The position numbers and the translations under genes are program-made. 64,000 nt of DNA from positions 77,484,835-77,548,834 of the forward strand of contig NC_081356.1 of assembly GCF_030684315.1 (NCBI RefSeq). The letters are read 5' to 3'. The notes under the pieces are model-generated. The model searched no databases, had not been told where the DNA came from, and saw nothing but the letters and a program-made list of their open reading frames with translations. Each line of letters begins with the position of its first letter. The first letter of the stretch is position 1. Source of the DNA: Stegostoma tigrinum (lineage: Eukaryota). Below, in pieces: positions 11,401 to 53,257 of the stretch.

Positions 11401-14301
11401 TATACCCTTGCTCCTTTGTTTACTACGTTGCACCACTGTTACACAATGTATGGTGTGGAGAGGTATTTACAGGAGAATATTGTTGACCTGCTCATGTCTA
11501 TGAAGAAGCAAAACTTGGCTTAAAACGCACATAAACAGTAGTAATCTCCTTGTAAATTACAGCACAATTTACAGTTCAAAAACACAGTTTTAATTGAAGA
11601 TTGTAGCAACAGGCTGAAACAGAAAAGTAGAAACATATTGTTGGCTCAGTCAGCTTGAAAGCATGTCACATAGCTGTTTTCTGCCATTTTCTAAGAATAT
11701 CTAACACAGAATGGCCATAGAAGGAATAAAGGCACAAAATAGTCAGTTAAAATAAATGTAGCAAGTTTGGAAGAGGTAGAGAATTGAATTCCCAGTTAAG
11801 GTCATATTGGGCTCAAAACACAAACAAACTCCGCTTCTCTCTCACAGTTGTTGCCAGAACTAAAACTTTCTGTTCCTATTTCAGATCTCCAACATCCACA
11901 GTACTTTGCTTTGTTTAAGACAGGAGAACTGCTTTGTTTCCATGGAACTGAGGTGGATAACAAGGTTCCTCATGCGAAGAAAAGGCACTGGCACTGGGCT
12001 GATTTTCTTCCTACCAAGTGCATAACCTCCCACTTTGCTACATTAAACTCCATCTACCAAATTTATGGACATTCACTCGATCAATGTATATCCCCTTGCA
12101 GATTCCTTGCATCTTCAATCCAATTGCTGGAAAATATTTGATGAATTGAACAAGGTAATAAGGCACCACCCTACCATTTCTTCTATGGGCAGCAACAAAT
12201 TTCTCACTCTGAAATTAACAGCTAGGCTTTAAATGAGTCTTCAAAGTGCTAACTGTTTAATGGGGTCTTGACTGGGGAACTCACATCCCTGTAGCTTCTT
12301 TCTCATTTGAACAGTGCAACCCTCTGCATGCTAATACCCACTGAGCATTTGGTCAACCATTAGTCTCATTAAAGTGTACTCATGTCCCTTTTAATGACAA
12401 ATGGAAAATGGGCATGCAATATTGAATCAGGCAAAAACTGAATCTTGACCTCTTCTCTGTGAGGCCTGGACAATTTCAACTTCCAAACCTTATCTGCTTG
12501 TGAGTTGGCAATTGTTTGTCTCAGTGGCTGGAGGGTGGGACCAAAAAATGGTTTGTGCTGTCATGGGAGATAGTGAGAAAAGTTCTGTGAAGGTGGAGGG
12601 GAGAGAAGATTAAATTCTACTGATGTCAGAGTCACAGGACTGCAAGGTAAGTAAAATAAAAATTCAATCCAATCTTTCCTACCTCTTGATTCCTTTTTTA
12701 TTCATTGGCGAGATGTCTTATGAGATCTTGATTATAAAGGCTTCAAAAACAATGTTGGAGCAATTAAAGTAATTTTTTGAATAGCACAGTTTGGAGGAAA
12801 TGCCACAAAGCCTAACCCCACTCTGCCCATACCAGATACTGATTTCCAGAAAGGGATTCCAACTTCAGAAGCGTGTTAATGTTACCTGCTCAGGAGAAAT
12901 GTTTAAAATAGATTAGTCACTTAGGAGGTCCTCTGCTGCTTCTTCACAGATTATCAGATTGAAAAGTACATTGCTGATGCCTGAGTTACTGGTTGAACAA
13001 CCCTCAGTGTGACTTCCCTGTGAAACACCGTAGAACCACAACCTTCCAGCTCTTACACTTCAATTAAGGGTTTTACCAATTGATTGGTAATACTTGACCC
13101 CTTTTGAAAGGATCACCGCAAATAAACTGTAAGGAAACCTAACAAATTAAACTAAAATGGCATTTCTGAGGGCATTTACTTAATGGCATTTACTTAATCT
13201 ACATTTCCTCTCGTGTCCTTTAGTCATACACAGGCCCACACATACTGTAAGATACTGCAATTGTGTAGTTCCTGTTTGGGGATACTGGGAAATGGATGGA
13301 CGCAGAATGAGCCCCTCAACCATTCATTAGCTGCCTCAAGCTTCTATCCCATGCTTAGCTACTAACTTCTTTCCTGCAGACTGATCACCAATGGGCTAAG
13401 GTACGCATGGAGACACATTTGGAAAAAGATAGTGATGAAGACAGCAGGAGGAATACAGACATTACCATCTTCTTGTGGACAACGATGATGAGAGACAAAG
13501 GAGAATGATGATGAAGGGGGTGAGGCAGGAGATCAATTTGGATCTGAAACAATCCATGAGTTCCTGCACAAATCTCTTCTCTCATTATTCTGTTCCTTCT
13601 CCGGCTCAAACTCCTTGCTTAATTCAGATTGTTTCATCCGAAGGAATTAGAAAAGGCCAGCGAGGAAGTCATATCAGGTGGTTCACACAACACGAGGCAG
13701 CTGGAAGAGTGGGGATTGAAAGAGGATGTGCCATCTTCCTACTGACTGCTGAGGAGAAGGTTGCTGCCCAGAACTTCAAAGAGTTGAGCAGCTCAAACAC
13801 AGGGCTGCATGCTACAGCATTCACTTTCAGTAACATTCGAGAAGTTTTTTTCTTTGTTGCAGGAATAGAGACACAGGCCACATCTTTGGGAGATAAATGT
13901 TGGCCTGCCCAGTGACACCCATGTCATATGAGCAAATTTAGAAAGAGAAGAACTAAGCAGTGCCATCGCTCTTCATAACTACCTATTGCTAATCCTATCA
14001 TCCAATAATGTCATGAGTGCTACCTAGAAGAACTGAAGATAGCACAAATACAAACTAAGCTTTTACGATCTCAAGATTAATTTTTCCTGTCATACAGACT
14101 TGGCACAATGTTGCTGTATACCAAATTCTTTAAAAAAGGTTGAAACAAAACTAATAAATGATGTTATATTTTGGGACATACATAGAAAAAGAAAGCAAAA
14201 CATCACATTGGATTCAAAAATATAACAAAATATTTAAAAATATACATTAAAGATTTAAACATCTTCATTTGAGATATTGTAGTCTATGTCAGACTTCTTC
14301 C

Positions 14302-14987
14302 TCAGACTAATCGTCTTTTCTTTTCAGGGGTCCTGGACTTCCTCCTTCTTAATGCAAAACAAAGTGCTTCAGGTTGCTGCACTGTGGAAGGTCCTAGACT
14401 CTGAGACTGAGGAGGGTGTGTGGGAGAGTGGTCTTCTGAACTTGTTTTGTGGATTGGCTCTTCAAGCACAGACCTCATGAGCCTTGATAGTTCAGGAGAT
14501 GTTTGAGGGAAATGCCGCTGCAAGGATAGATGCATCTCTGAGACGTTTTGTGCCATTTCCCGGGTGTGAAGGAGTAACTGTTGGTTTTGTAGCACCAATT
14601 CTCTGGTGTTGTCAGCCACTCCCTTGGTCTGCTGGGCCACCTGATGGGTATGCTCAGCAACTAAGTGGGTTTCATGAGCTAACTCCCGGGTTGCTTGTAT
14701 GAGATCCCGCATAAGGGGCTGGAATTCTACCCAAAAATCTCTCAAGAATGCAGTCTGCTGGTTTTGAGATTCAAGCAGTTGCCTATCAAATTCATTCACT
14801 AATTTGGCATTGGAAGGTGGGCATGGGCCCCTTTTGGGAAAGTATGTCTCTGATAGTGAGGGTGGCATATTAGGAGTAGGGGGAGATTCTGAGGCTGGTG
14901 TCCAACTTCTTGCTCCATCCTCATTGCAAATGAGTTGTCCTCTCGAGGGACCAGCTTTCTCTGCATAGGATCTTCCTTCTTCCTTTA
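14302..14987 (-). CDS. Uncharacterised Myb/SANT-like (Harbinger-derived) protein, coding exon 2: heptad coiled coil and basic NLS-like tail
   Basis: Lies in a 233-codon uninterrupted ORF outside recognisable repeats. Acceptor ttttttccag|TA AAG GAA at 14988/14987 is phase 1, matching the exon-1 donor. Contains heptads TRELAHE/THLVAEH/THQVAQQ/TKGVADN/TRELVLQ and ends RRRKSRTPEKKRRLV*. Confidence 0.72.
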
Positions 14988-16599
14988 CTGGAAAAAAATA
15001 CAATGAGAGGTTACTCTATTAAATCACAGAACCGAAGAGTACCTAGATTTTAACACATCACACTGTCTTACATCAGTAGGTTCCCTGTAATGTGTTTTAA
15101 AAATTCAAATCTTCTAATCATTTAAAATGGAGCCAAAATTTGAAATATTCTGCATTGTGGTTAGTTTTGAGCAGATAAAATGAATTGAACAGCCATGAAA
15201 TATTCATAGTGTTTGTTTTTAAAAAAAAATTATTGAACCAACAATTCAAATAAAAAAAACACTTCCTTGGCCTCAGGTACAACTGGCAACATATTGTAAC
15301 AGTGCAATTTTTGATATGGACAATGGAAAGTATTGAGAAAAATCAACAGTCTCCAGCAACGTTGTCCTTTTAAAGATCATAAGCAAATAGTCAAATAAAC
15401 ACCTTTTTGTTCAAATCATATCAATTTTGAAGCCTTATCTTTGTGGTATTTTCCTAGATGATGACTCCATGTATCTTGCAGAATTTGCCACCTCTACCAA
15501 CTGTGTATGGGTCGTTTGGAATAAGTCAGGGTTGTTTGGAATAAGTTACTGACACCAACTCTCATTTGCCTTTGTTTTACCTTGGGCTTATCTGGCAATT
15601 ACTAAAGAGTATCCACAAGACAGGTCCTGTTCTCAGATAACAAAAAGGCTTATTGCATAATTACGAGGACCATTGCGAGCCGGCACAGCTATGTCTTGTC
15701 CCTTTGAAAGCCTGAGTTGAACTCCCTGTCTTCATCTACATTGTGGCATCAGTAGCACGGGTGGGACCACTGTAATATGAACATTAACTCCTTACCATTA
15801 CCATCTACAACAGTGTAACAGGCTTATTGGCTCCATGATTTATGAAATGTAAAAGTGAACATATATCAATCCCTTTGAACCATTAAAAACAAAACCACCT
15901 TCCAAGTCCACTGCAGAAGACAATTAGGATGAGTAAAACATACCAGTTGTGAGAAAAAAAACAGAAAATATTTAATAGTGCAAAAAGTATGAATATGCTA
16001 TTTTGTCAGGGGAAAAATGCGCGAAGCACCTCCACGAACAAAATGCGACATGTAACCTTCATTTTGTTCAAAAAGATGTGAAACCTCCCAAGAAGAAACA
16101 AAGAAAGGATTCCTTTGTTCTGACTGCTAAAATAAGAATGCATGTAATAACATGTCTAAGAAATGTATTTAAGAGAATATACAACTTTTAAAACATACTG
16201 AAGAATTTTAAAAGCTTTATCTGAAAAATATTGCCACTTTGCAAAGTTTTAAATTTCAAACAATTTAAAAATACACGAGCTTTGCAAGAAAAGGAAGATT
16301 TAAAAGCTAGAACAGCAAATCACTACAGAACAACCAGTAAGCGCAATTTCAAGCTTTGTTAGTAGAATTTGATACAGTTCAACCATGATACAGAGTTAGC
16401 AAAGACTGGTTAATAAAGAACACAGTGCAACATCAATAGCAAAGTTTACAGTAACTTAAAATAAACTGGATTCCTGAATATAAGACGACAAGCAGATAGA
16501 ATATTTGATTTTAATAAAATTGTAATTATAAAGATTTGCATACCTTTAAAGTCAGAATATTGATCAATCCATTAAGGAGGAATTGAAAGATAATATTTC

Positions 16600-17930
16600 C
16601 TAGCAGATTCAAAATCAGAGAGTCCTTGCAAAACACAGGATTGGACTTTATGGAGGAAACAGTTCCTAAGATAAAGAACTACTTCAAAGTTGAATGCTAA
16701 ATCAGAAGCAGAACAAGTTACTACACCATTATATTTAATAGGTCCTATAGCTAATGTTATTAGAAATCACCAGAAGATAAAGGAAGGTAGAGACACGTTT
16801 AATGATGTTCTAAATATTTAGACAATACTTTAACTTGAAAATGAAGTCTTGAACAGGCAAAATGGATTTTGGAGACAATTTCATAAATGACCACTTCAAA
16901 TTAGTTGAAACCTGTATACATGGAGCCTTGCAATCAAAGTTCATAAACATCAGAATTCATGGAAGAACACTTGATCAGACCCATCACAGACTAAAGGAGA
17001 TTCTACTGTGAAAAACACACATACACTGAAGCAGACACTCGGAAATATCACAAACAAATCCTCAGAGGAAAAGAACAACCTTATGACAGAGCCTATTAAC
17101 TTCATACGCGCACTCTAAATAGATAATGTGACAAGTCAACAAAAAGAGGCATGAGATCAGATACTTAGAGTCAGTGTCAGTGCTATGGAACAGAAAAAAC
17201 TTCATAGGCTAAAAGCAGTATTCAGCTGTGATAGAAGTGTATTGCATCTGTTAAGAAAATGGTAATTTCCAAAGGACGTGCAGGATTTGAAACAGGTTCC
17301 AGAACAGTGGACATACTAACAGGCACACACATAAACAGCTTAATGCAGTGGATCAGCATCTCCATTAAAAGAAAAGCCCACATTTCAAGATATGCCTCCA
17401 CTGGAAGAGATACCTAAAGCATTCCTAAAGCAAATAGGAGATCCATCATTACTGATAAGACTGAATTTACTTATGTCACTGAATATCGTACTCAATTTAA
17501 GCCTCAGAAAAGGCTAGGTATGACTGTACTATCGGAATAAATACCATGGTTACAAAAACAGAAGTTATAACCTACAAATCAAGAGTTGCAATTAATCTTA
17601 CAACATAAAGGATATCAGATAGTAGAGAAAGCATCAATCGTTGAGATTAAGGAAACCAGACTATTAAGCAAGAAAGCATATTGTGTCCTCAACCTCCTTC
17701 AAAAAGGCTGAAGAACTACATTAGCATATGGAGAAAAGTTTCTTTGAGATGGAATACTCAAGATTGTTCACAGAATCAGGCAAACTCAATAATGAATAAC
17801 AGTATAACGTTAGGAAAGATTCTAAGTCATGATTCTGCCACATACCCTTCGTGAATCAAATTTAGAAACAGCTTCAGGAAATGACAAGAACCGGTGTCAT
17901 TTTGTGGGCAGCCAAACTAAATGAATAGTG
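16600..17930 (+). mobile_element. Highly decayed Ty3/Gypsy gag-pol relic inside the Myb-gene intron
   Basis: Hand translation gives DWTLWRKQFLR*RTTSKLNAKSEAEQVTTPLYLIG and DNFINDHFKLVETCIHGALQSKFINIRIHG (gag-like), then LLSKKAYCVLNLL, EYSRLFTESGKL and QLQEMTRTGVI (protease-RT linker-like); many stops. Confidence 0.65.
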
Positions 17931-19839
17931 CTTGTGCATGTTTACTGTCGTCAATAGCTTACTGATCTTTAGTGTCTCTACCTATCATTATCTTCTGCTG
18001 ATTTCTAACATAATCAGCTAATAGGACCTATTAAATATAGTGGTTTAGTGACTTGTTCAGCTTCTAATTTAGTATTCTGCTTTGAAGCAGTTCTTTATCT
18101 TAGGGGAACTGTTTCCTCCATAAAGTCTAATTGTGTGTCTAGTCAGGACATCTCCGATTTTGAATCTGTGAGGAAGTATTATTTTTCAATTTCTCCTTAA
18201 TGGGTTGGTCAATATTCTAATTTTAAAAGTACTGTCTTCCCCTTCTATCACTCACACTTCAAATGTAATTTAATGCACAACAGTTTGGGATGACTTGAAG
18301 ATAATAGACTAAAGGCACTATAACAATATATGATCAACCTGAGAAGGTGATAGACTTGCCAATTTTAAATCAATATTACCACATCTATATGATATTTGAA
18401 TTAATTTGGCACCCCAATTAAATTAAAACAATCCATATAAGTTCACTACTCTTTAGAAGTGTTACTTATGTAAACATAACAGCTGCTATGTGCCAAATAT
18501 CCCAAGTGAGATAAATGATAATGACATTAATTTGAATGTTGAATAAAAATGTTCGAATGATCTTGACCATCCACATGAACCATCAGGACTATGGTTCAAC
18601 ATTTTATCAAAAGACCAGTAGCTCTAAGTGTAGCAGTGCCTCAGTGCTGCCCTGGAATCCTAGCCTGGAATTGTGTGACCAAGTCTTGATGTGGCACTTG
18701 CCTGCCAAATCTTTTTACGCAGCAGCAAGATAAGACTGGCAATCCAATAACAACAACTACTAACATGAATAAGCTCCAAAACATGCTCCAAATCCGAACT
18801 GATCTACTGCACCTAATTCTGATTCACACAACGAATATGTAAGACCAGAAACCTCATTTAGATATGGATGCAGCTCTACATAAATCAAGACAAAACAATA
18901 CGTGAGGTCGAGGGTCAGTGTATAGTGAAATCATGAGTCAAATTCGGATAACCTGAAACTCCAGCAGAATGAGAAATTCAGTAGAAGGATATGAATTGTT
19001 CAGGCTGGTAGCTCCAGGCTAATCAAATCCATGTAGTCTCGGCATATAACCATACGAGCCAATCGGAATGGCTGTACTAGCTGGAGTAGAGAACATTCCC
19101 AACCCTGAACAATTCTGCAGGTATTGGGAATAACCGTGGTAAAGAGCCTGGGCTATAAGAGTACAGTTGCAGCAACGGACAGCTGGACCAATTCAAAGCA
19201 AGGTAATGGCATTGCAGTGAGGGTGTGGAATTAGACCCTGAAGAGACTGATGAATACCCATCTGCCAGTTTTCTGAGCTGAAGCCGTAAAGGATGTAGAA
19301 ATGCTCAAGATTTGATACTGCAGCAGGAAAGCACAGAAGTTTTAACTGCATTGATGACATGGCAGACTGTATTGTTCTTGACAGAAAACAAAATAACAAA
19401 GGAAGATTGAGTTTTTCCACTGCTAACTTCCAACTTCTTTTTCAGTGCTGTTTAGGCTATAATAAGTTATTGACAAATTGAAAAATAAATATTTTTTTCA
19501 CATATTTACTATATTTCTGTATTTCCATTCTTTTTTTTTGACACAGAATACATTTATAGGCAAACCAGGTTACATGGTGGATTCCTCAGCTACTCAAAGC
19601 TCCACTTAAACATGAATTTGTGGGAGGGCCCCCTGCAATTTGATTTTTCATTTCCCAAGCCTATGTTTTACTCCAGCCTAGATGGATGTGTTGGGAGTGT
19701 CTCCATCCTCATAATTATAAGGATCACATGAGAAGTGAGCTTTGAAGCTTTAATTCAAGGGAAATTCATGATCCAAGTATAGTGTTGCACTCATTGGGAA
19801 AATAAAACAGTGATTTGAGATGCATGTAGGACATGCCCC

Positions 19840-20805
19840 TGTCGGTATCAATGCTGCTGAGGTGGAGGTGGTCAAGAGCTTCAAGTTCCAAGGAGTGAAT
19901 ATCACCAACAATCTGTACAGGTCCATCCACATTGATGCTACAGGCAAGAAAGCACACCAGCACTTCTACGTCTTCACGAGGTTAAGAAAATTTGGCATGT
20001 CCACAATGGCTCTTACCGATTTTTATAGAAGCACCATAGAAAGCACCCGATTCAGACGTATCACAATTTGGTACGCAACTGCTCTGCCCCAGACCGCAAG
20101 AAATTAGGGAGAGCTGCGATCGCAGCTCAGTTGATCATGAGAACGAGTCTTCCTTCCATTGACTCTGTCTACACTTCTCGCTGCCTTGGGAAAGCAGCCA
20201 GCGTAATCAAAGATCCTTCCCACCCCAGTTATTCTATCTTCCACCCTCTTCCATCAGGCAGAAGATACAGAATTTTGATAAATACATATGAACAGATTCA
20301 AGAACAAGTTCTTCCCCACTGTTATCAGACTTCTGAACATATATTATAGTTGATCTTTCTCCATGTCTTCTTAAGGGATAGTATGGTGGCTCAGTGGTTA
20401 GCACTGCTGCCTCACTGCACCAGGGATCCAGGTTCAATGTTATCCCTGAGTGACTGTCTATGTGGAGTTTGCACATTTTTCCTGTGTCCACATGGTCCAC
20501 TTTTCTCCCACAATCTAGAGATATGTAGGCTCGGTGGATTAGCCATGGGAAATGCAGAGTTACAGGGGTAGGGTGGTGGAGTGGTGCTGGGTGAAGTGCT
20601 CTTCAGATATTTGGGTCAACGTAATGGGCTGAATGGCCTGCTTCCATGCTGTGGGGATTCACTGATTCTCTATAGTTACAACACTATATTCTGTATTCTG
20701 TTCTATTATTCTGATGTACTTATGTCTTATTTGTCTGGTTAAACATAAAACAATACTTTTCACTGTATTTTGGTACATGTGACAATAATAAATCAAATCA
20801 AAAAT
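19840..20805 (+). mobile_element. Rex1/Babar-type LINE 3' fragment, interrupted by a SINE
   Basis: VEVVKSFKFQGVNITNNL...LRKFGMS...FYRSTIES and ...IKDPSHP...LPSGRRYR; tail acaataataaatcaaatcaaa near 20800. Confidence 0.75.
20377..20660 (+). mobile_element. tRNA-derived SINE (HE1/V-SINE-like)
   Basis: ggtggctcagtggttagcactgctgcctcac (A box), ggttcaat (B box-like), tgtggagtttgcacatt core and a CR1-like tail. Confidence 0.8.
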
Positions 20806-21689
20806 CATAAGATAAGGCCTTGAAACAAACTGTTGGCAATTGAACTTTTCTTGATAAACTCATTGAGGAGCCATTTGGATGTCTGATATGCAAAGTGAGA
20901 TCACTCACATTCATAGAGTGAGCCTTACTCCCCTCAGATTAAGATGAAAGCCTGCTGCTTGGGGAGAGGGCAGTGAGCATGAGCTTTTAGCCTGCATCAA
21001 ATCATGCTGAAGCCGATTGGGCAACAGTTGAAAAAATTAGAGGTTCTCCAAATGCGGGAAAACATGTTCTTTTCCGTTGCACCGAAAATTCTGACTTCAA
21101 CAAGAAGACAAATGACCAAGAAACTGAAAGGAGAGAGGAAGCAGGAAATGGATCCATTTCCTTCAGGTTGACTGGGCTGGGCGAAGCTCTTCTTCGAATA
21201 ACAAGCGGCTAGAGAGGCAGATGGTTACTTTTCATATAATGTCTAAAAATATCTGACAGAAGTAGTTTATTTTAACTCAATGTGTTTTTTAAAAATCTTT
21301 CAAACCAGGTGACAGTGTGGATTCTGACCCCCTTTTAATTAATCATACCAGTTGGGGTGGTATTATTTTTTCTAGTTTTATATTTGAAATTCTTTGAACA
21401 GTTTAGACTCAGTCAATTCATATCTGAACATTGACCCAAATAAGTTACAATATGGAAGTGGGTCACTTGGCCCAGCCTAGACATGAATTTCTAGACTATG
21501 AATTCAGAAAACACTTTTACTTGTGTAAAGTATTTGTATGAGCTCAGGACATCCCAAAACACTCTACAGACAGTGAAATCCTTTCTGAAAAGTAATCATT
21601 ACCGTAATATAGGAAAAGAAAACACGTACTTTATAACTATCTCCCAGTGAGGTTCTTTATACATAAAGTAACTTAACAGTCCCAACATA

Positions 21690-22190
21690 CTTGCTTTTTT
21701 TGTTTATTCATGGAATATGGGTATCGTTGACTAGGCTAGCATTTATTGCCCATTCCTACTTGTCCTTGAGGACGTGTTGGTGCATTGCCTTCTTGAACTA
21801 TTGCAGTCCATGGTGTTGGGGACACTGTTGTTATAAAATCAGAAAATTCCTACAGTGTAGGAAGAAGCGGATCTACACCACACAAGGAGAGAGTTTTCAT
21901 TTTTTTTTGGATGTTGGAGTGGTCTGATACAATTGAACAGCATAGGCCATTTCAGAAGGCAGTTAAGAGCCAAACACACTGTTCTGGGTCCAGAATCACA
22001 TGTAAGCCAGCCCAGGTACAATGGAAGATTTTCTAACCTTAAGGACATTAGTGAACCAGATGGGTTTTACAATAATTGACAGTGGTTTTCCTGATCATCA
22101 TCAATCTGGCTTTTAATCCAGGTTTTATTGAATTCAAATTTCACCATACGTCTGGTGTGATTCAAAGCCATATCTCCAGAACAATAGCCT
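21690..22190 (-). mobile_element. Deu-domain SINE, degenerate
   Basis: Reverse-complement match to the 32280-32603 copy (agcatttattgcccat; gacattagtgaaccagatgggt; ttattgaattcaaatt). Confidence 0.6.
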
Positions 22191-22224
22191 AAGTTTCTGT
22201 TTTCTGAATTTGGTGATATTTAGT

Positions 22225-22335
22225 GATGATGCAGAGGTAGTGTCCATATCTCTGAGCCAGGACGTCCGATTCAAATCCTACTTGCTCCAAAGGTATGTAA
22301 TAACATCTCTGAACATGTTGGTTAGAAAATATCCC
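22225..22335 (+). mobile_element. Short tRNA-derived SINE
   Basis: gcagaggtagtgtcc...ttcaaatcc...aacatctctgaac...gttagaaaa; similar copies at about 51627-51745 (+) and 59770-59890 (-). Confidence 0.55.
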
Positions 22336-22462
22336 ACAGCACCTCCCAAAATATTGCCTCAGATGATAATTTAATCTCTCTGTAATGTCCATTAGTTACA
22401 AATAGAATGCAAATTAGATGATATTTAGAATCACGACAAGTTCATCGAAGGGAAACACTTAC

Positions 22463-22868
22463 TTGCCCTCCAGTATGGAAAGTCTGCAGGATCCAGTCCA
22501 CCCATCCACAGTATTGACTGAGGGTGCATGATCTGATGGACTCTCCATTCCTCTGGGATCAGATCTTCTGCTCCACAAGGTTCTACTTGAATTTGACGTG
22601 CCTCTCGGGCCAAATGGGCGACCTCTTTAGTGCGCCGCATAAGGTCATCCCAACGGGTCTTGATGGCCTTTACAGACCGTTTGACCTGTGAGACTGCATT
22701 GACTTTGGCAGTGATATTTTGCCATATCTTATCACGCTCTCCCTGCGACAGTCTGTGGGCACGACCGAAAAGTTGATCCCTATGTGCGGTCACCTCAGCA
22801 ATCAGTACTTCCAGCTCATCTGAGCTGAATTTGGGCAGTCTCTGTCTCCTCTGCTGCTGCTCTGCCAT
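22463..22868 (-). CDS. Uncharacterised Myb/SANT-like (Harbinger-derived) protein, coding exon 1: DNA-binding domain
   Basis: MAEQQQRRQRLPKFSSDELEVLIAEV...LFG...KIWQNITAKVNAVSQVKRSVKAIKTRWDDLMRRTK fits the Myb_DNA-bind_5 pattern of NAIF1/MSANTD and Harbinger Myb proteins. Start context aaaATGG; donor GCA A|gtaagt at 22463/22462 (phase 1; 406 nt). Confidence 0.85.
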
Positions 22869-23503
22869 TTTACTGAAATCTGCAAACTCCTTGCACCACG
22901 TGGCTAACTCCCAACAGAATATTCATTTGCAAGTTGTCAACATGCCCAAACGCTTATTTTGCAGAATCAACAGTCCTAACTGCCCTAATACCTCCTTATC
23001 AGTTATGCCTAAAGTTAATAAATTAGTGGACGTTCCACAAATTTTCCGCAACACAGCAACTTCGTTTGCGTAAAACTTGCACAAAATCTGCTTATGTCTG
23101 CGTGCAGAAAGAGAGGAAGGAGTTTGGTGAGTAGGCGGGGGTCGACAGCAATTTACAGCAGGATTAGTGCTAGCTTGCAATGAGCTGCCGGCAGTATACT
23201 TGCTCTGCAAAGCTGTTTTTTTGCTGTGGTGTTGGAGCCTTTGCCGCAATCCCAGCGACGACTAGCGGACAAAGTGTTTCAACCCGCGTATTCACTCCTC
23301 TCAATAAATCTGGGTACCGGTCTGCGTCTGCGCACACCTGGGGCCGGTGGATCATTCGGCAGCGGCTCACACTAGGGCCACCGGTGTGTCATTCTGCGTC
23401 TGCGCACACCAGGGCACCCGGCGTGGCATTCTGCGTCTGCGCACACCAGGGCTCCCGGTGTGTCGTTCAGCGGCTGCGCACACTCAACGTTTTATTAACG
23501 AAG
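22869..23503. promoter_or_regulatory. CpG-rich bidirectional promoter between the Myb-like gene (-) and CCDC112 (+)
   Basis: 635 bp between divergent ATGs; CpG-dense from about 23100 to 23860 against a CpG-poor background; repeated TGCGTCTGCGCA (NRF1-like); YY1-like AAGATGGC at the CCDC112 start. Confidence 0.75.
23317..23484. repeat. 37-bp minisatellite, about 4.5 copies
   Basis: Units start with CCGG at 23344, 23381, 23418 and 23455 (exact 37-bp spacing), plus a shortened unit at 23317; consensus ccggtgtgtcattctgcgtctgcgcacaccagggcnc. Confidence 0.9.
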
Positions 23504-23530
23504 ATGGCAACCATAGTAACAGGGATGGAG
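23504..23530 (+). CDS. CCDC112: CCDC112 coding exon 1 (MATIVTGME)
   Basis: aagATGG Kozak context; donor GAG|gtgagg; phase 0 fits exon 2. Confidence 0.7.
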
Positions 23531-23620
23531 GTGAGGAGTGATTCTTTCTACTGTTTGTATTTGGTGTGAAGTTTCTCTTTTCGGCGGGGGGCTATGATTA
23601 AATTCTCTCTGTATAAACAG

Positions 23621-23745
23621 GCTGGCGATTGCGGTCGGAAGCCGGACTTAGTGTCGAGGCAGCGGTTGCAGGTTCCCATTCCCGGGCGCAGGGAGTCGGG
23701 CGGGAAGGCCGCCTTCAGCCGGGAGCTCCGCAAACTGTGGCTCCA
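23621..23745 (+). CDS. CCDC112: CCDC112 coding exon 2
   Basis: Acceptor aaacag|GCT, donor CA|gtgagt; 125 nt, phase 0 to 2, completing Gln with exon 3. KAAFSRELRKLWLQ aligns to recalled human KAEFVRTAEKFKNQ. Confidence 0.75.
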
Positions 23746-24516
23746 GTGAGTATAAGTAGCTGTTCCACCTCCACCTCCACCTCAGAGTGAATTTGCAGCC
23801 GCGGTCAGGTGGAATATGCTGTTCCAAAACCACGACCGTAAAGAGAGCCTTACGGTCCGTCGTGTATCTGCTGGCTCAAAGCTGTCTTTCTAATTTCACT
23901 TTTCATGAAACGAATGAGAATAAGTAGGAAATTCATTGAGATCATGGCTGATCTGATAATCCGACGTTCTATTTGCCTACCTTTTCCTCATAGTTCTTGA
24001 TTCCTTTACTGATTAAAAATCTATCTTTGCCTTGAATGTACTTACTGACCCAACTTCAACTACTGTCTGTGATAAAGAAACCTAGGACTCACTACCATCT
24101 GGGGGAAGAAATTCCTTCTTATCTTTTTCTTAAATGTGTGAACCTTATTCTGAGATTTTCCCTGCTCGTCCTAGACTTCCCAAGAAGGGGAACAACTTCT
24201 CAGGATCTACCCTGAGGATGTCCTCTAAAAGTATTGAATGTTTAACTGAAGTTATTTCATTCTAACTACACTGGGTACAGGCTTAACCTCTCCTTATAAA
24301 ACAGTCCCTCCATACCCAACGTTGACTTAGTAAACCTGCTCTGAAGTGCCTGTAATGCCAGTATATATCTCCTGAGATAAGGGGACCGAAACTATACCAG
24401 TATTCCAGCTGTAGTTAGTATAGTGTCTTGTAAGTTTTAGCAAAACCTCCTCACGTTTATACTCTATTCCCTTTCAAATGAAGGCCAACACTCCACTTGC
24501 CTCCCCTGTTATCTGT

Positions 24517-25720
24517 CATCATCAAGCTAGTGGACCTATGCCTTACCACCCACTTCACTTTCAATAACAAAACCTTCAGACAAACCAACGGTACACCCAT
24601 GGGATCTCCGATATCAGGGTTCTTAGCAGAGGCAGTAATGTAGAGACTCGAACAAACAGCTCTGCCAACCATCCAACCCAAACTTTGGGTCTGCTATGTG
24701 GATGACACCTTTGTCATCACTAAACAAAACAAATTAGAGGAAACCTTCAAGACCATCAATAATACCATTACTGGCATAAAATTCACAAAAGAGGAGGAAA
24801 ACAACAACAAACTGCCATTCCTAGATGTCACAGTAGAGCGAACAGCCAATGGGGAAACAACACATACGGACCAAATACTGAACTACAGAAGCAACCATCC
24901 CAACATCCACAAACGAAGCTGCATTAGAACATTATTTCAACGAGCCACCACACACTGCAGCATAGAGGAACTACGAAGAGCAGAAGAAAATCACCTACAC
25001 AGCGTATTCAAAAAGAACGGGTACCCAATGAACACAGTCCGATTTCTCAGCAACAAACCCAAACAAACAGACAAAACGGGCCCAGAAACCATAACCACTC
25101 TCCCCTACATCAAAGACATCTCGGAAATGACTGCCAGACTACTTGGACCTCTTGGCATCATGGTAGCCCACAAACCCACCAACACACTGAAACAGCAGCT
25201 AATGAACTTAAAAGACCCTATACAGACAACAAGCAAAACGAACGTCATTTACAAAATACCTTGCAAGAACTGTGACAAACACTACATTGGACAAACAGGC
25301 AGAAAGCTAGCCACCAGGATACATGAACATCAACGAACCGCAAAAAGACATGACCCACTATCACTATATTGTTACGTACAGATGAGGAAGGACACCACTT
25401 TGACTGGGACAACACATCCATCCTAGGACAAGCCAAACAGAGACACGCACAAGAATTCCTAGAAGCATGGCATTCCAACTGGAACTCCATCAACAAACAC
25501 ATTGATTTGGAGCCCATCTACCACCCTCTGAGAAAAAGAACAGGAAATGACACCAACACATGAAATGACATCACCAACCCAAGGAAACCTAAACACAAAT
25601 AGAAAGTGGGACATAACACCAGCGCTTCATCGGAGGCTCACTGATGATGTTACCTCGAATGGTGACGAAATGTCTGAAAATGAACCTTCCAGCTCAGCGA
25701 GCAAACTTACATCCAGAACT
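24517..25720 (+). mobile_element. Penelope-like element: RT C-terminal part, GIY-YIG endonuclease and terminal repeat
   Basis: GTPMGSPISG, YVDDTF, HPNIHKRSCIRTLFQRA and VIYKIPCKNCDKHYIGQTGR; an in-frame stop and a frameshift are present. Confidence 0.9.
25636..25680 (+). ncRNA. Minimal hammerhead ribozyme motif (PLE-associated)
   Basis: tca-CTGATGA-t-GTTACC-tcgaat-GGTGAC-GAAA-tGTC-tga: conserved core, 6-bp stem II and UCA/UGA stem I. Confidence 0.7.
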
Positions 25721-26314
25721 GTCTGCAGTCTTTCTCCATTTAAAAATATTTAGCACCTTTGTCCTGCCAATATACTTAGCCTCACATTTTCCATGTTATA
25801 TTCTATTTGCTAAGTTTTTTGCCCACTTGCTTTATTTGTCCATATCCCCCTGCAGACTGAGTCATACACAGCACTTGCCTTCCCAATTATGTTTGTTATC
25901 TGCACACGTGGCTGTAATACATTCAATTTCCTCATTCTAGTTACTGTCTAATGTGTATTGTAATAATTGTGGCCCTGACACTGAGCATGTTGGCACTCCT
26001 AGTTAGATTGTCATTCTGAAAATATACTCCTCCATCCTCCACACCCCAATTCTGTCTTCTATTAGTTAGCCAGTCCACTGATCCACGGTAATATACTTCC
26101 AACACTATAGACTTTAGTTAAATAGCCTAATGTGTACTTTATCAAATGCCTTTTAGATATTTCACATCTACTACTTCCCCGTTGACTGTCTTGCTTGTTC
26201 CTTCCTCAAAGAATTGTTTGTCAGACAGAATTTTCCCTTAGTGAAGCAAGGCTGACTCTGCTTGTTCAGATTGTATATTTCAAAATGCTGTGCTGTTTGT
26301 CTTCTACAAAATAA

Positions 26315-26630
26315 TAGAAACCCTATGGTGTAGGAAGAGGCCATTTGGCCTATCGAACCTACACCAACACGCAGGAGAGCATCCCACCCTAGCCCAAAAG
26401 CCATTTATTTACAGCACTAATCCACCTAGCCTGTACGTTCCTGTACGCTATAAGACAATGTAGTGTGGGCTACGTGCACATCTTTGGATTGTTGGAGGCG
26501 CTGGAGCACCCGACGGAAACCCACACAGATACAGGGAGAATGTGTAAACTTCACACAGAATTAGCTAAGTCTGTAATCAAGCCTGGGTCCCTGGTGCTGT
26601 GAGGGAGCAGTGCTAACCATTGTGCCTTTA
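26315..26630 (-). mobile_element. tRNA-derived SINE (HE1/V-SINE-like)
   Basis: Reverse complement of ggcacaatggttagcactgctccctcacagcaccagggaccc... Confidence 0.75.
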
Positions 26631-26999
26631 TAAATAAACTCTAACATCATTCCAATAACAGAAGTTAAACTGACTGCCCTATAGTTACCAAATTTATGTC
26701 TCCTCTTTTTAAATAAAAATGTTAATTTGGCAATTTTCTTTCTTATGGGAGTTTTACAGAATCTAAGGATTTCTGGAAGATTACTCCCAATGTGGCCACT
26801 ATCTCTTTAGCTTCTTCCTTAAAAATCCCAGAATGAGTCAGGATCTTATCAGTCTTCTGCGCCATTAGTTTTTCTTTTTTTTTGGTCCAGTGATAGTTTT
26901 TGATTCTATCCTCATCTCCTTCCACCACTATCCTCTTTCCACAACACCTTCAGTTCCTTGATTATTTTATAGTTTTGGAGCCATGAAGACTGATAAAGT

Positions 27000-27660
27000 G
27001 GATGTGAGTTTACTCGCTGAGCTGGAAGGTTAGTTTTCAGATGTTTTGTCACCATTCTAGGTAACATCATCAGTGAGCCTCCGGTGAAGCGCTGGTGTTG
27101 AGTCCCGCTTTCTATTTATCTGTTTAGGTTTCCTTGGTTTGGTGATGTCATTTCCTGCGTTGGTGATGAACATCAACTAGCCACAAAAAGACATGACCCA
27201 CTATCACTAGTATCCTTACACACAGATGAGGAAGGACACCACTTTGATTGGGACAACACATCCATCCTAGGACAAGCCAAATAGAGACATGCACGAGAAT
27301 TCCTAGAAGCACGGCATTCCAACCGGATCTCCATCAACAAAAACATTGATTTGGAGCCTATCTACCATCCTCTGAGAAAAAGAACAGGAGTTTTGAAAAG
27401 ATTTGTAGCTCAGGTTGAGTTTCTGGATGTGAGTTTGCTCGCTGAGCTGGAATGTTAGTTTTCAGACGTTTCATCACCATTCGAGGTAACAATGACCTAA
27501 GGAAACCTAAACAGACAAATAGAAAGCGGGACAAAACACCACAGCGCTTCACCGGAGGCTCACTGATGTTACCTAGAATGGTGACGAAACGTCTGAAAAT
27601 TAACCTTTCAGCTCAGCGAGCAAACTCTCATCCAGAAACTCAACCTGAGCTATAAATCTT
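27000..27660. mobile_element. Cluster of four Penelope terminal fragments in alternating orientation
   Basis: About 27000-27167 (-), 27168-27388 (+, copy of 25326-25543), 27389-27492 (-) and 27493-27660 (+); same family as 24517-25720. Confidence 0.8.
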
Positions 27661-27934
27661 GCCATTACTTACTATGTAGACTTGAAATTTAAAAAAATCA
27701 GGTAATATGTGTATATAATGTTCTGATGAATTTCTGTAGAAATATTGTAGAAGTTCAGAAAGATCCTTAGACCGCACCATTCAAATTCATGAGCATTACC
27801 ACCTGGGAGAAGAAGCAGCCGATGCGTGAGAACGCTGCCACCTGCGAGACCCCATCTGAGCGACTCACTGTCCTGACTTGGAAATATATTGCTGTACTTT
27901 TATTGTTGTTGAGTCAAATTCTTGGAATTCCCTC

Positions 27935-28586
27935 CCTGTGTACAGGATAGTTAAAAAGGCAGATGGGACACTTGCTTTCATCAGTTGTGGCATCAAGTAA
28001 TACAACAAGAAGTTAACGTTGGGAGTTGTACAATTGGTCAGGCCACAGATGGCGTACTGTGTGCAGTTCTCACCACCTCACTACAGGAAGGATGTGACAG
28101 GACTAGACAGGGTACAGAGGAGGCTCACCAGGATGTCGCCAGGAATGGAAAAATTGAGTCATAAGGAGAGGTTTGGATTTTTTTTTTTAGAGATACGAAG
28201 ACTGAAGAGAGACTTGATTGAGGTGTATAAAGTTATGAGCTGTATGGGCGGAGTGAATAGAGAGCAGCTGTTCCGCTTGGGGTCAACAGGGCATAGCTTT
28301 ATGATAAGGCGCGGGAGATTGAGGGGATTTGGGATAGTGGGAATCTGAATATACTGCCTGGGAAGGTAGTGGAGGCTGGAAAACTTACAACTTAAAAAAA
28401 ATTCTTGGATGAGCACTTCAAATATCATAATATTCAAGGAGAGGGACAAGTGTAGGAAATTGAGATTAGCGGACCTTTAGTGCTGTTTATTGTCAGTGCA
28501 GGACACTCTTCCCTGAGCGTATGGAAAAAGAGCTGCTCCCCACTGACTGTACATAGCCAGCTGTAGGGAATCTAATCTAATCTAAT
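27935..28586 (+). mobile_element. CR1 3' fragment nested in an L2-like 3' end
   Basis: LVRPQMAYCVQFSPPHYRKDV; ends in (aatct)n. The host element reads ...ggaattccctccc on the left and continues ccctcacagcatt... on the right. Confidence 0.7.
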
Positions 28587-30208
28587 CCCTCACAGCATTA
28601 TGGATCGACCTACAGCACATGGATTGCAGTGGTTCATGAAGGCAGTTGTCAAGAGCAACCGAAAACAGACAATAAATGCTGGCCCAGCCAGCAATGCCCA
28701 CATTCCATTAGTGAATTAAATAAAATGGAAGCAAAATATTGCATATGTGGAAAGCTGAAAATAGGCACTTATGAATTAGCAGCAGGAATAGGCTACTGGG
28801 TCTCAAGCTTGCTCTGTCACTCAGTAATATGTTTCTGATCTGATTACTCCAATTGCTTGCGTAGCTTTGGTAACTTTTCATCTGTTCTTTATTAAGAACC
28901 TTGCTACATCTCCTTTCGAAAATAAGCAAGAGCTGTCCTCCCACCACTTTTTAAGAAAGATGGTTCCAAAGACCTTTTGGGGGAAAAAAAATTCTGATCT
29001 TTTTCTTAAGTGGGCAACCCCGTTATTTTTAAACAGACCCCCAAATACTTGTTTCTGTTACAAGAGGAAACATCCTTGTCTATATCCACCTCATCAAAAT
29101 CCCTCAGGATCAAACCTAGTTTGTCCAACTTTTCCTGAAATGGGCAAGTTGTCTTAAGAGGTATTGGTTTGCTAAACCATGTCGGAAGTGCTTCCAATGT
29201 ATTTCCAGCACACACGTGTGTGAAATAGGAGCAGAAGTAGACCACTTGGCTCCTCAGTCCTGCCCTTCCATTCAGTGAAGTAATGGCTGATCTGTTTATG
29301 TTTCAAATTTCCTATTCCTGTCTACTTCCCTCATGACCCTTGAATCCCCTGTTTATCCACTTAGGAAACATCCTTTCCACATTCACCTTGGCAAGACCAC
29401 GCAGGATCATATCCCCTTCATCTTTCATTCTTCTAAATTCCAGTGAAAGCAAGGCTAGCCTGTCCAAATATCCTGAAGCCAACTCAACTTTAGAGATATT
29501 AATCTGGGAAACCTCCTCTGAACCACGTCCAATGCGTTTACATCTTTTCTTCAATAAGAAAACCAAAACTGCATCCAATATTTGTATGTGATTTAACTAA
29601 TGTTCTGTATAACTGAAAGTTAACATACATACTTATTTTGTACTCAAGGATAGTATTCCATTAACTTACTTGATTATGTGCTGCATGCTTATGTGACTCT
29701 ACCCTCTGCGCCTCAGATTTCTGCAGTTTTTATCTAAGTAATATTCTACATTTTTTGTTCTTCTGGCCAAAGTGAACAACTTCACATTAAATCACATTAT
29801 ACTGTACCTGTTAGATTTTTGTTCACTCTCTGGGCCTATCTGTTGTCTGTCTGCAACTTCATTTTGTCTTCTTTACAGTATATCTTTTTATGTTTCTCCA
29901 GTATTTAAATACCATGGCTTCTCTCCCCTCATCTAAATCATTGATGTAAATTGTAAAATGTTAGGTCTCCAGCACACATCCTGCTGGACACCACTTGTCA
30001 CATCCTTTCAAATCAGTCCTATTTATACATGTTCTACCTTCTGTCAGCCAGCTATTCTCCCCTAAATTATGATATGGTATCACCCTCAAATCGTCAGCTT
30101 TTATTTCCTGCAATCTTCTTCAATTTAGCAGCTTATTAAATCATACAGGGACCCAATTATTCACAGCAGAATGTTCCTTCAAAAAAGTCCAGTCCAGTAA
30201 ATTGATTA

Positions 30209-30399
30209 CAGTAGGTCCCTGACTTACGAACATTGACTTATGAACGCCTTTGTTCACAAATATGATCAGGTTGTAATTTTAAAGACCAAACATTTCCGGT
30301 ACTTAAAAATGGCTGCTTTACATTGTGTTCCAACTTATGTACAAATTGACTTCGGAACAGACTGTAAAACGGACCCTATCGTAACCTGCAGACTGGCTG
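30209..30399. mobile_element. Tc1/mariner (Tigger/pogo-like) MITE
   Basis: TA|CAGTAGGTCCCTGACTTACGA ... TCGTAACCTGCAGACTGGCTG|TA: imperfect 21-bp TIRs (12/21 matches) flanked by TA on both sides. Confidence 0.6.
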
Positions 30400-31788
30400 T
30401 AAACATGATTTTCCTTTAGTAAAACTATACACACTCTTTCTGGGGTTGCCTTGAGTTTAAGTGCAGCTACAATTTCTTTAGTAGTCAATTCTAAATGACG
30501 TGTGAATCTAACTGGCCTGAACTTTCTCTTTTCTGCCTTCCTCCCTTCTTGAATAGATTAATTATAATCAATATTTAAAGTCTGTTGGATCCTTTCCTGA
30601 ATGTAGGGAACTTGAAAAATTAACACCAATGCAACTGCTAACCTCTTACCATCCTAGAATGAACTTCATTCTAGAACCTGGAGGCTTGTCAAGCCGCAGC
30701 TCCATTGATTTGCTTATTAGTTCTTCCTTTCAGATAATTTTGCTAAGTTTCTCTCTCCCTTCCATCTCCTGACTTACAGCTGTAACTGGATATTTTTGTA
30801 TCCTCTAACAAAGACAAGCATAGATTTTATTTACTTCATCCTGTCGTTTCCTTATCATCTACTATTCTCCCCATTCTCTCCAGAGGACCAACACCCAACT
30901 TGCTTTTTTTTAAAGTCCTGTTGAAACTTTTGCTTTTGGTTTTTACATTTCTAGCTATCTCGCATACTCTAAATTCTTCTTCCTGATTAACCTTTTTGTC
31001 ATTATCTGTTAATCGTAATTGTATCAATTGTCTGATCTATGTTCAGATTTAAAAATAGAATAGACCATAACCACTTATTAGAGACTCACCAACAGCTAGC
31101 TCGTTTCTATGATAGCAAAAACTAATTCCAGTCAACTGTAATGAATCCAGCTCTCTGATTGCCTGTCTTGAAATTATAACCTTGCCTCCTCCTTTCAATG
31201 ATATTGACTACCTGACTTTCCTTGCCTGTTCTTGGTGATGCCCACTGTCTTGGTGTCCTCACCTTCCTTCCTTTTCACTGCTCCTTAACTACCAGGGTCT
31301 CGGCCCAAAACGTCAGCTTTTGTGCTCCTGAGATGCTGCTTGGCCTGCTGTGTTCATCCAGCTTCACACTTTATTATCCTAAACCAGAACTGTGTATTGT
31401 GCTCCAGATGTGAGTGCATCAACACACTGTCTGACTGAAGTATAATCTTGTAATTGTTGTTTCAATTTCCCACCAATAGATTACTTCCTACTAACTTGTG
31501 TAATCACTTGCTTGCACTTGCATTCAAGCCTTTTACAATTCATGTACCGGTAGAACAGCAGGTCAAGCAAGATTTTGGGAGAAAAACAGTTAACATTTCA
31601 GATCGTGATAATATCCTTCTTACATTGCATATGGATATTATCAAGTTGATTATAACTGCAGAATAAATAAGTTTAGCTGTTTGAAAACTGACTACAGTCA
31701 TGTCTGTCATTGGTTACTTTAGTAGGAAATCTTTGCAAATAACGTATTTGAATTTTAAACACTTTGATTATTTTTTTCCCCAATCCAG

Positions 31789-31910
31789 AATAGCTAATTT
31801 AGAAAAGGACAAAAATGCTAATCTTTTCAACAAAAGGAATGAGTTTAGAGCTGAATACAGCATTCTTGAAGAATTGGAGCTGAAACTAACAAACAACAGG
31901 AAAACAGAAA
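31789..31910 (+). CDS. CCDC112: CCDC112 coding exon 3
   Basis: ccag|A ATA GCT AAT TTA GAA; IANLEKDKNANLFNKRNEFRAEYSILEELELKLTNNRKTE; donor A|gtaaga. Confidence 0.93.
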
Positions 31911-32279
31911 GTAAGAATTATGAATTTTTGGGGCTATTTTGCTTGTAGCTCTCAATTTTCTTTTTGCTGTCATAGTCACCTTTGTTTTTTTCCCCTGTGT
32001 AATAATAAAGAGAACACATTTTGAATATTACTGAAGAAAAGAAATGTTAAAGTTTTTGTCTTGTACTCATCAGGACAAATGAAAAATATCAAATTTCAAA
32101 CTATCACAATTCATGCATCAGGTTAGAAGGTTGACTCTAACTGACCATGGTGTATAGGACTGGGACAGGTAGAGGGGAGAGGAGAGGCAAGTGGGTTTGG
32201 GAGGGAAAGATCAGGAGTGGAGGGCTCTGCCCCTCTCCCTGCACTGTGCAAGGGGAGGTTATGGCCAAGTGCTATGATC

Positions 32280-32603
32280 TCTGGATGGTTAATCCAGAGA
32301 TCCAGATAACGTCTGGGGGCCTAGTTTGATTCCCGCCACAGCAAATGGTGGAATTTGAATTCAATAAATATCTGGAATTAAGAATCTAATGATGACCATG
32401 AATCCATTGTCAATTGTTGCAAAAACTCATGGTTCACTAATATGCTTCAGGGAAGGAAACTGCCATCCTTACCTGGTCTGGTCTACACGTGACTCCAGAT
32501 CCACAGTAATGTGATTGACTGTTAACTGCCCTCTGGGCAATTAGGGATGGGCAATAAATGCTGGCCTGCCCAGTAACACCCATATCCCATGAATGAATAA
32601 AGA
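32280..32603 (+). mobile_element. Deu-domain SINE (SacSINE1-like)
   Basis: ggtggaatttgaattcaataa...ccttacctggtctggtctacacgtgactccag...gggatgggcaataaatgctggcc...atgaatgaataaa; multiple copies in the window. Confidence 0.75.
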
Positions 32604-32902
32604 AACTCTTCCCCCTACATTCTTGACCCCTTTAATCCTCCCTGACTCTTCTCTGCTCTTGCTTACCAGAGCAAACTAAAAATGCATTTTGCATTCCGTA
32701 TAGTTTGCTTATTACTACTATATTTTTATACCTTGTGTCAGGTGGAACTTCTCTTCTAAGACAAAGCGCTTTGGATTTAAGCTTTCCTACTTTCCAATAT
32801 CTGACTTTGTTTCAAACTTTGCTTTTTAACATTCCTCTGAAGTGTGTTACCAAAACATGCATCTTAATTCATAATTTCTTGTTTTAATATTTCTTATAAC
32901 AG

Positions 32903-32992
32903 GTATGAAGGTTCAACAGCAACTTGCAAAATTACGTCACAATGTGAAGAGATTCCAGAGCCAGCTTATGGATGTTAAGCCCACTCCAGAAT
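32903..32992 (+). CDS. CCDC112: CCDC112 coding exon 4
   Basis: MKVQQQLAKLRHNVKRFQSQLMDVKPTPE; 90 nt, phase 1/1; acceptor aacag|, donor |gtatgt. Confidence 0.93.
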
Positions 32993-34963: not shown

Positions 34964-35039
34964 TTGTAGAAAAGTTGAAAGAAATCATGGAAGAGGTAGA
35001 AAATGCAATCACTACCTTTAAAGAAGAACAAAGGCAGAT
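34964..35039 (+). CDS. CCDC112: CCDC112 coding exon 5
   Basis: FVEKLKEIMEEVENAITTFKEEQRQ; acceptor cttag|, donor AT|gtaagt. Confidence 0.93.
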
Positions 35040-36245: not shown

Positions 36246-36630
36246 GTATGAAGAACTCCTGAAGGAGGAAAAAACTACTACTCAGGAAATTTTGGCTGTG
36301 GAAAAAAAAATAGAAGTATGGGCCCAGATTCCAACAGAAGCAGTGATACGCAAGCCCATTGTAGCAAAAGGAGTATCCACTAACTCTGGTCCAGAGAATG
36401 TGTTAGTTGAAATTACGGAATTTGATAAGTTCCTTCAGCAGACTGGATGCCAAGGTGGTTGGGATGATTTTGATCATCAGGACTTTCTCAAAGTCTGGAC
36501 AAAACACAAAGGAAAAGCATCATTTATTGAGGAAGCTCTGCAACATTTGATTGGGAGGACCCGTGAGGATATAATGCAACATGTGCAATGGTATCAAGAG
36601 TTTCTCTTCCTAGAAGAGAGGCAGAAGGAG
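36246..36630 (+). CDS. CCDC112: CCDC112 coding exon 6
   Basis: YEELLKEEKTT...FLQQTGCQGGWDDFDHQDFLKVWTKHKGK...WYQEFLFLEERQKE; donor GAG|gtagga. Confidence 0.95.
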
Positions 36631-36656
36631 GTAGGAATTTGACGAAATATTTGTTT

Positions 36657-52869: not shown

Positions 52870-53257
<388 letters not shown>

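Follow-up and report, generated by a model that had tools for sequence, protein, structure and literature searches.

The 64,000-nt stretch of the Stegostoma tigrinum genome analyzed here (contig NC_081356.1, positions 77,484,835 to 77,548,834; hereafter the window) carries on its minus strand two open reading frames (ORFs), the first with a Myb/SANT-like domain, and raises the question of whether these belong to a Harbinger transposon or to a host gene that descends from one. Exon 1 (22868-22463, 406 nt) ends in phase 1 at a GTAAGT donor that begins at 22462, while exon 2 (14987-14302, 686 nt) is preceded by a polypyrimidine tract and a CAG acceptor. Joined in phase 1 across an intron of 7,475 nt (14988-22462), the exons encode a stop-free protein of 363 amino acids (aa), and the original prediction, made from the DNA letters, of stop-free exons spliced in frame into about 363 aa was thus borne out. 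The joined translation matches RefSeq XP_048383942.1 letter for letter, a record titled 'uncharacterized protein si:ch211-261d7.3 [Stegostoma tigrinum]'. Since this record may derive from the same DNA, it is not independent, and independent support comes from the proteins of other species, in which the exon junction is read through as [AS]IKEE in 10 of 10 aligned orthologues. The probability of an open frame arising by chance, as estimated from base composition, is 1.6e-5 for exon 2 and 1.3e-3 for exon 1. A Pfam scan of the joined protein, a check that the original prediction had proposed, matched PF13873 at residues 10-82 (E 2.5e-18).

Full-length orthologues were identified in 15 species of sharks, rays and chimaera, with lengths of 359-371 aa and one model of 420 aa. 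Identity to the chimaera protein is 62% overall and differs strongly between regions, from 79-80% in the trihelix and 78% in the coiled-coil block to 42% in the linker and 32% in the tail, and among 10 sequences 46 of 73 trihelix positions and 58 of 93 coiled-coil positions are invariant. Because the folded domains (78-79%) are far better kept than linker and tail (32-42%), this domain-wise pattern of protein conservation suggests purifying selection. In RefSeq, the orthologues of 2 species carry the label si:ch211-261d7.3 and those of the others are called MYPOP-like or uncharacterized, so that the gene is not unnamed, as had been claimed. In the skate Amblyraja radiata, isoform X2 (P0020) joins another first exon to exon 2 and comprises the C-terminal half only; if real, such a coiled coil lacking the DNA-binding domain could be dominant-negative.

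The gene is present once in the genome. Exon 1 as a query returned itself and one paralogue with 51% identity on sequence C27 (47 of 47 candidates scored), exon 2 returned only itself (34 of 34 candidates scored), and in DNA run X3 the exon bins lie at a depth of 20-40x, the single-copy level, compared to up to 655,400x over short interspersed nuclear elements (SINEs). A second two-exon gene with Myb domain and coiled coil, encoding approximately 366 aa, is located on C27 (43654138-43658247, plus strand; L002/L034); it is kept in several sharks (P0011, P0021-P0026, P0069), its second exon opens with V-K-x-E, and it forms a separate clade. Using 7 open shark transposase frames and their profile, no transposase was matched in the window, in the 200 kb to its left or in the 150 kb to its right, and among the 25 longest of 92 inverted repeat pairs none flanks the gene in the manner of terminal inverted repeats (TIRs). 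The absence of a visible transposase or TIRs, which had been noted before, therefore holds, and the gene shows none of the marks of an autonomous Harbinger element (transposase gene, TIRs and multiple copies). A convergent ORF (13439-13915, plus strand) was considered as a decayed transposase and rejected, as it matched neither a Pfam family nor the 7 shark transposase queries or their profile. That the locus is a transposon copy or a chance open frame has next to no probability: membership in PF13873 is the only point in favor of a transposon copy, whereas the domain-wise constraint and the lack of transposase and TIRs speak against it, and the single copy together with conservation to chimaera rules out both. 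The minus-strand two-exon gene is a real, intact, single-copy gene conserved in cartilaginous fishes. The copy-number search and the orthologues in 15 species also support the earlier view of a long-resident, conserved host gene.

The two exons divide the protein into a predicted DNA-binding and a putative oligomerizing half. Exon 1 encodes the Myb/SANT-like trihelix (aa 10-93), with a conserved aromatic core of F14, W49 and W73, followed by the Harbinger-type extension 'L-T-x-E-E ... G-x-x-D'. An AlphaFold model of exon 1 (88 sequences; mean predicted local distance difference test, pLDDT, 66) contains helices at 16-28, 42-59 and 66-93, and its best structural matches are the Zeste DNA-binding domain-DNA complex (5CQQ; Z 8.4, root-mean-square deviation (rmsd) 2.9, 70 residues aligned) and GT-1 (2JMW; Z 8.1, rmsd 4.4, 79 aligned), Z scores that are modest for a helical domain. 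A Foldseek search with this model returned no match at E <= 0.001. The N-terminus models as a Zeste/GT-1-like trihelix, sharing its fold with the Drosophila Zeste and Arabidopsis GT-1 (2JMW/2EBI) domains, while the sequence identity of 16-22% makes this a likeness of fold only. Zeste combines a DNA-binding N-terminus with a C-terminal oligomerizing helix, a layout that the shark protein resembles.

Exon 2 opens with IKEE, which is created at the exon junction in 10 of 10 aligned orthologues, contains Lys137 and fits a SUMO consensus. A Pro/Ser linker follows, then an FDRQLL motif and a heptad coiled coil (aa 200-292). The stretch 228-290 of this coiled coil is built of heptads, 7 out of 8 of which carry T or N at the same core position. 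The C-terminal half is predicted to be a coiled coil, and the full-length AlphaFold model has a single long helix at 195-294; this model is of low confidence (pLDDT 49, 10 sequences, trihelix merged into one helix) and was not used for fold searches. By sequence, the PDB yielded two designed coiled coils only (6YAZ, E 0.005), reflecting heptad likeness alone, and the ESM Atlas yielded PF13873 clusters only. A basic motif, KKRRLV in S. tigrinum and KKR[RK]L[VD] in general, ends all 10 aligned orthologues and is likely a nuclear localization signal. Taken from motifs and models, the encoded protein is predicted to act in the nucleus as an oligomeric regulator that binds DNA in a sequence-specific manner.

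The explanation that we consider probable is that this single-copy cartilaginous-fish host gene goes back to the Myb-like helper of a Harbinger transposon, was acquired in an early jawed vertebrate, and came to encode a nuclear DNA-binding regulator. The Myb-like protein of Harbinger elements binds TIR DNA and imports the transposase (PMC9392472, PMC9710019). The shark protein shares with such proteins (Harbinger3_DR type) the Pfam family, the residues F14/W49/W73, the L-T-x-E-E and G..D extension, the intron position and C-terminal heptads. It differs from them in being single copy, in lacking transposase and TIRs, and in the loss of a TGGG motif found in 53 of 149 hits. It weighs against this explanation that no transposon of the exact Myb subfamily was found, the family profile having matched none of the transposase loci scanned (30 short, 20 wider), and the Harbinger origin therefore rests on family likeness; furthermore, the label 'transposon-like', as used below, is for most unnamed relatives inferred. 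The genome does contain a fossil in which a PF13873 Myb is convergent with a decayed transposase (L055). In total, 14 PF13873 matches (L044-L057) were found, 13 of them stop-free, and 8 form a clade of their own. At least 148 PF13359 matches (150 of 1171 candidates scored) include many decayed Harbinger transposase fossils, most with stops. PMC9179366 reports no Harbinger in elephant shark and calls for a check of other cartilaginous fishes.

Besides these fossils, 7 Harbinger transposase-like ORFs retain an open DDE domain (L058-L064, on C1, C19, C44 twice, C38, C10 and C50). Of these, 6 are without one or more putative residues of the catalytic triad, and L063 has a frame change upstream of the domain; no Myb match lies within 5 kb of the 6 ORFs checked. 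From their sequences, the 7 are candidate domesticated dead transposases. This bears on a further possibility, compatible with the origin favored above, that the shark protein serves mainly as adaptor and nuclear importer of a domesticated Harbinger transposase that is catalytically dead and encoded at another site, as in the pairs NAIF1-HARBI1 and ALP2-ALP1. A genome with such ORFs would suit this role, and Myb-transposase pairs are recurrent and may be unlinked (PMC9710019). However, no partner gene is found nearby (window, 200 kb left, 150 kb right), there are at least 11 further intact Myb exons that might fill the role, and nothing ties the shark protein to any transposase, which leaves the adaptor role rather unlikely in our view.

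How this gene relates to other vertebrate Myb genes was addressed with a family profile search of 1.84 billion representatives, which gave 732 matches at E <= 0.001, the best 150 of which were considered. The best non-chondrichthyan proteins among the matches listed are a Myb protein from the PRDM11 locus of birds, whose marsupial relative carries a MYPOP-like label, and a coelacanth form annotated with LIN37. Further relatives comprise a lungfish protein, a bichir form annotated with VRK3, an amphibian Myb at the 3' end of TSNARE1, and a ray-finned group including zebrafish si:ch211-261d7.3. In several of these records, the Myb exons are annotated as fused to neighboring genes (P0029, P0030, P0041 and P0058, corresponding to LIN37 in coelacanth, PRDM11 in birds, TSNARE1 in the tailed frog and VRK3 in bichir); such fusions represent repeated capture by, or read-through from, unrelated neighbors.

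The C-terminal half, which the original prediction had not recognized from any named MSANTD gene, is not unique. The motif that opens it, FDRQLL..Q.QQT, matches PRDM11-locus proteins (E 5e-9 for a profile of the C-terminal part alone), and with this profile 9 of 15 tested relatives, including the transposon-like P0062, P0099 and P0107, scored above all 200 shuffles, while ray-finned, MYPOP and C27 proteins did not. A phase-1 intron follows the trihelix Trp by 63 codons in the shark. The corresponding distance is 62-66 codons in teleost rows and 67 in those of the PRDM11 locus, and three transposon-like rows give 63-67; these positions are inferred from read-through translations except in the shark and in teleost contig L093, where a phase-1 intron is seen at the matching place. 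Since both the intron position and the C-terminal motif are common to transposon-like relatives, it is likely that the transposon gene brought in both the intron and the coiled coil.

The PRDM11-locus Myb (birds, marsupial, and coelacanth with LIN37) shares the architecture, the FDRQLL..Q.QQT motif and the intron, but differs in a 36-residue spacing, a shorter coiled coil and its locus, and it groups with lungfish P0049 and the TSNARE1 3' Myb (support 95/90). Full-length colinearity with this protein, FDRQLL motif included, as well as an 18-row clade (82/78) of shark, ray-finned, PRDM11, lungfish, TSNARE1-3', VRK3 and sturgeon proteins, could indicate that the shark gene and the PRDM11-locus gene are paralogues, both descending by gene or genome duplication from a single Myb gene domesticated earlier. 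However, an exclusive clade made up of shark and PRDM11 rows only is marginally rejected (p value of the approximately unbiased test, p-AU, 0.031), and we know of no paralogon that links the flanking genes. Moreover, the C-terminal motif occurs in transposon-like proteins, so that no shared host ancestor is needed, and duplication from such an ancestor appears improbable to us.

With regard to named genes, the shark gene is not NAIF1, MSANTD1-4 or MYPOP by position or by trees that lack bony-vertebrate NAIF1 and MSANTD1-3, the 99-row tree being a quick search. The MYPOP label on several shark records was considered as a sign of orthology and rejected, as MYPOP forms a separate clade (support 100). 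In common with NAIF1, MSANTD1-4, MYPOP and TSNARE1, the gene has a trihelix, a single copy and a probable origin near the base of jawed vertebrates (PMC9392472), and it presumably shares their fixed position, its neighborhood having been read in this genome. It differs from them in locus; MYPOP and TSNARE1 are separate supported clades, and the MYPOP trihelix is 39-42% identical.

Whether the shark gene and ray-finned si:ch211-261d7.3 are one gene is a closer matter. A one-residue deletion, which gives an F-to-W spacing of 35, is found in all 17 shark rows and in 133 of the 134 from ray-finned fishes, compared to 2 of 184 others (335 of 369 rows parsed), and a teleost protein as a query has this Myb gene as its best hit in the shark genome. 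Zebrafish si:ch211-261d7.3 and its ray-finned orthologues (P0244, P0048) share the PF13873 trihelix with this loop deletion, a W-x-P-x-S linker motif, the phase-1 intron 62-66 codons after the Trp (63 in shark), a predicted C-terminal helix and a basic C-terminus. A weak colinear match also extends through linker and helix (E 0.003), and an exclusive shark plus ray-finned clade is not rejected (p-AU 0.535 and 0.173), although it was not recovered in free trees. The ray-finned proteins differ in an extra N-terminal coding exon of about 90-120 aa, the lack of the FDRQLL wording and a Gln-rich tail.

Several observations weigh against orthology. The trihelices of shark and ray-finned proteins are 51-53% identical, compared to 89% between bichir and zebrafish and 79-80% between shark and chimaera, which is lower than steady evolution of orthologues would give. 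Similarity over the whole profile is higher for the PRDM11-locus Myb (E 2e-30) than for the ray-finned gene (E 2e-21), a PRDM11-type query likewise finds the shark gene as its best hit, and with the C-terminal profile ray-finned proteins have next to no score (zebrafish 2.0 bits, reached by 2 of 200 shuffles; bichir -3.0, reached by 61 of 200). Furthermore, the free full-length tree places the ray-finned gene with the bichir VRK3-linked Myb (80/89) and not with the shark gene, and in teleost contig L093, the only one of two short contigs examined that includes a neighbor, the same-strand gene 1.2 kb downstream is not FEM1C, the gene to the left of the shark locus.

These data leave room for an independent domestication confined to cartilaginous fishes, in which the same Harbinger family gave separate ray-finned and lobe-finned genes (PRDM11, LIN37 and TSNARE1 loci), with the same working of the protein. 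Near-equal distances of 46-56% among all lineage-specific genes and a star-like tree agree with it, as do the annotated fusions to different neighbors (PRDM11, LIN37, VRK3, TSNARE1), which separate insertions would produce, and the use of the zebrafish name in only 2 species' records. The rare shared deletion argues the other way, though a shared parent transposon could have supplied it, and so do the weak colinear match and the RefSeq label. On balance, we lean slightly towards orthology of the shark gene with ray-finned si:ch211-261d7.3, judged from sequence, and regard a separate domestication as a substantial minority possibility. The restriction to one lineage that had been proposed is hence doubtful: the RefSeq label, the shared deletion and the best hit speak against it, while the 51-53% identity and the star-like trees keep it in consideration.

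Under the favored explanation, a Harbinger element would have inserted between FEM1C and CCDC112, and its Myb gene would have come under the CpG-island promoter of CCDC112, as we infer from the present arrangement. Transposase and element ends, none of which were detected, would then have decayed beyond recognition, while the trihelix, the intron and the coiled coil of the C-terminal half were retained in the Myb gene. The basic C-terminus would direct the protein into the nucleus, the trihelix would contact DNA, and the coiled coil would self-associate or bind partners; chromatin cofactors may be recruited as well, perhaps by way of SUMO attached to Lys137. Ray-finned fish probably still carry the gene, as si:ch211-261d7.3. 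A teleost Harbinger-derived MADF protein is reported to regulate a neighboring gene via KAT2B (PMC11893794), and human MYPOP belongs to a set of factors with motifs that follow chromatin accessibility (PMC11601247).

Possible transcript traces are consistent with the splicing of this gene, although none of the contigs listed spans the junction. In run X1, which is RNA by guess only and comes from another organism code, a 209-nt contig aligns to 22661-22463 and ends exactly at the donor with 10 letters left over. Another X1 contig (contig 7) breaks at the acceptor of CCDC112 exon 2 (23620/23621), which suggests that X1 contains spliced RNA. Contigs from X1 and X2 cover exon 2 at 14333-14600 and 14757-14936, and the joint of exons 1 and 2 is not among the 15 listed of 1378 joints. 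An X1 contig at 12679-12847 covers the region of the sole AATAAA within 12500-14301, at 12702, a weak hint that the probable 3' untranslated region (UTR) extends over 12679-14301 on the minus strand.

On the other side of the gene, its 5' UTR and promoter (22869-23490, minus strand), possibly with an upstream non-coding exon, were assessed by repeat search and tblastn of the N-terminal extension of P0016. They include a 37-bp unit repeated about 4.4 times (23321-23488), each with a GCG-rich core that resembles an NRF1 site. The Myb gene and CCDC112 are arranged head-to-head with 636 nt between their start codons (CCDC112 ATG at 23504, plus strand) and have a CpG island in common (23001-24000, observed/expected 0.82-0.94); a YY1-like AAGATGGC overlaps the CCDC112 start. 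The gene order is FEM1C (plus, about 180 kb to the left), the Myb gene (minus), and then CCDC112, PGGT1B and TRIM36 (all plus), with exons of CCDC112 (23504-42386) and PGGT1B (52919-53260) inside the window and FEM1C and TRIM36 to its left and right. These neighbors are named from their translations; for PGGT1B, there is also a weak PF00432 match. All four neighbors are in the 33-gene list for human 5q22.1-q23.1 of PMC10379344, and no recognized Myb/MSANTD gene is among those 33, and so the gene seems absent from the human locus.

The intron has accumulated repeats. A long interspersed nuclear element (LINE) 3' fragment at about 19814-20346 (plus strand) was identified by a PF09004 match in a Pfam scan of intron ORFs; this family is tied to Rex1-type reverse transcriptases, and the fragment is probably Rex1-type. 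SINE-like pieces of very high copy number lie at about 20380-20800 and 21700-22330. An old dispersed repeat occupies about 15660-17500 and 19230-19650 and is 64-81% identical to other loci. As delimited by genome and inverted-repeat comparison, the old repeat region at 15660-18231 has an internal inverted pair (16541-16796 and 17972-18231), whose arms measure about 257 bp, share 85% identity and are separated by 1175 nt. LINE and SINEs had thus been read correctly from the sequence, with a probable Rex affiliation, whereas a decayed Gypsy element was not confirmed, as 0 of 22 scanned intron ORF fragments match a family of long terminal repeat elements; Pfam does not give the class of the old repeat.

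The class to which this gene belongs is established. PMC9392472 names NAIF1 and MSANTD1-4 as its members and lists MYPOP, ZSCAN20, PRDM11 and TSNARE1 as putative ones, and TSNARE1 is treated in 10.1101/2021.02.09.430442 as well. The published vertebrate count of such domestications started from human proteins (PMC9392472), and genes absent from humans were therefore missed. The name 'ch211-261d7.3' occurs in no paper of the searched literature, a body that lies outside subscription journals and supplements. The gene is accordingly an unstudied member of the Harbinger-Myb domestication class that is already labeled in RefSeq. Overall, the conserved Harbinger-type Myb host gene that had been predicted stands, while its C-terminal half is recognizable and its lineage restriction doubtful.

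The known mechanism of domestication is unchanged by this gene. It is conceivable, if speculative, that it belongs to an overlooked set of Harbinger-derived regulators that surveys centered on humans miss, with one early transposon family giving at least five host genes (this locus/si:ch211-261d7.3 and those at the PRDM11, LIN37, VRK3 and TSNARE1 loci), and with a shark network of about a dozen Myb genes and about six dead transposases forming ALP1/ALP2-like chromatin-targeting modules, in which this protein would be one DNA-targeting subunit. The shared intron position and motif suggest more generally that such domesticated genes can owe their intron and C-terminal coiled coil to the transposon and not to later gain in the host. 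The gene has been kept through the whole history of cartilaginous fishes and probably also in ray-finned fishes, and if the zebrafish gene is its orthologue, its function would be testable at once by knockout.

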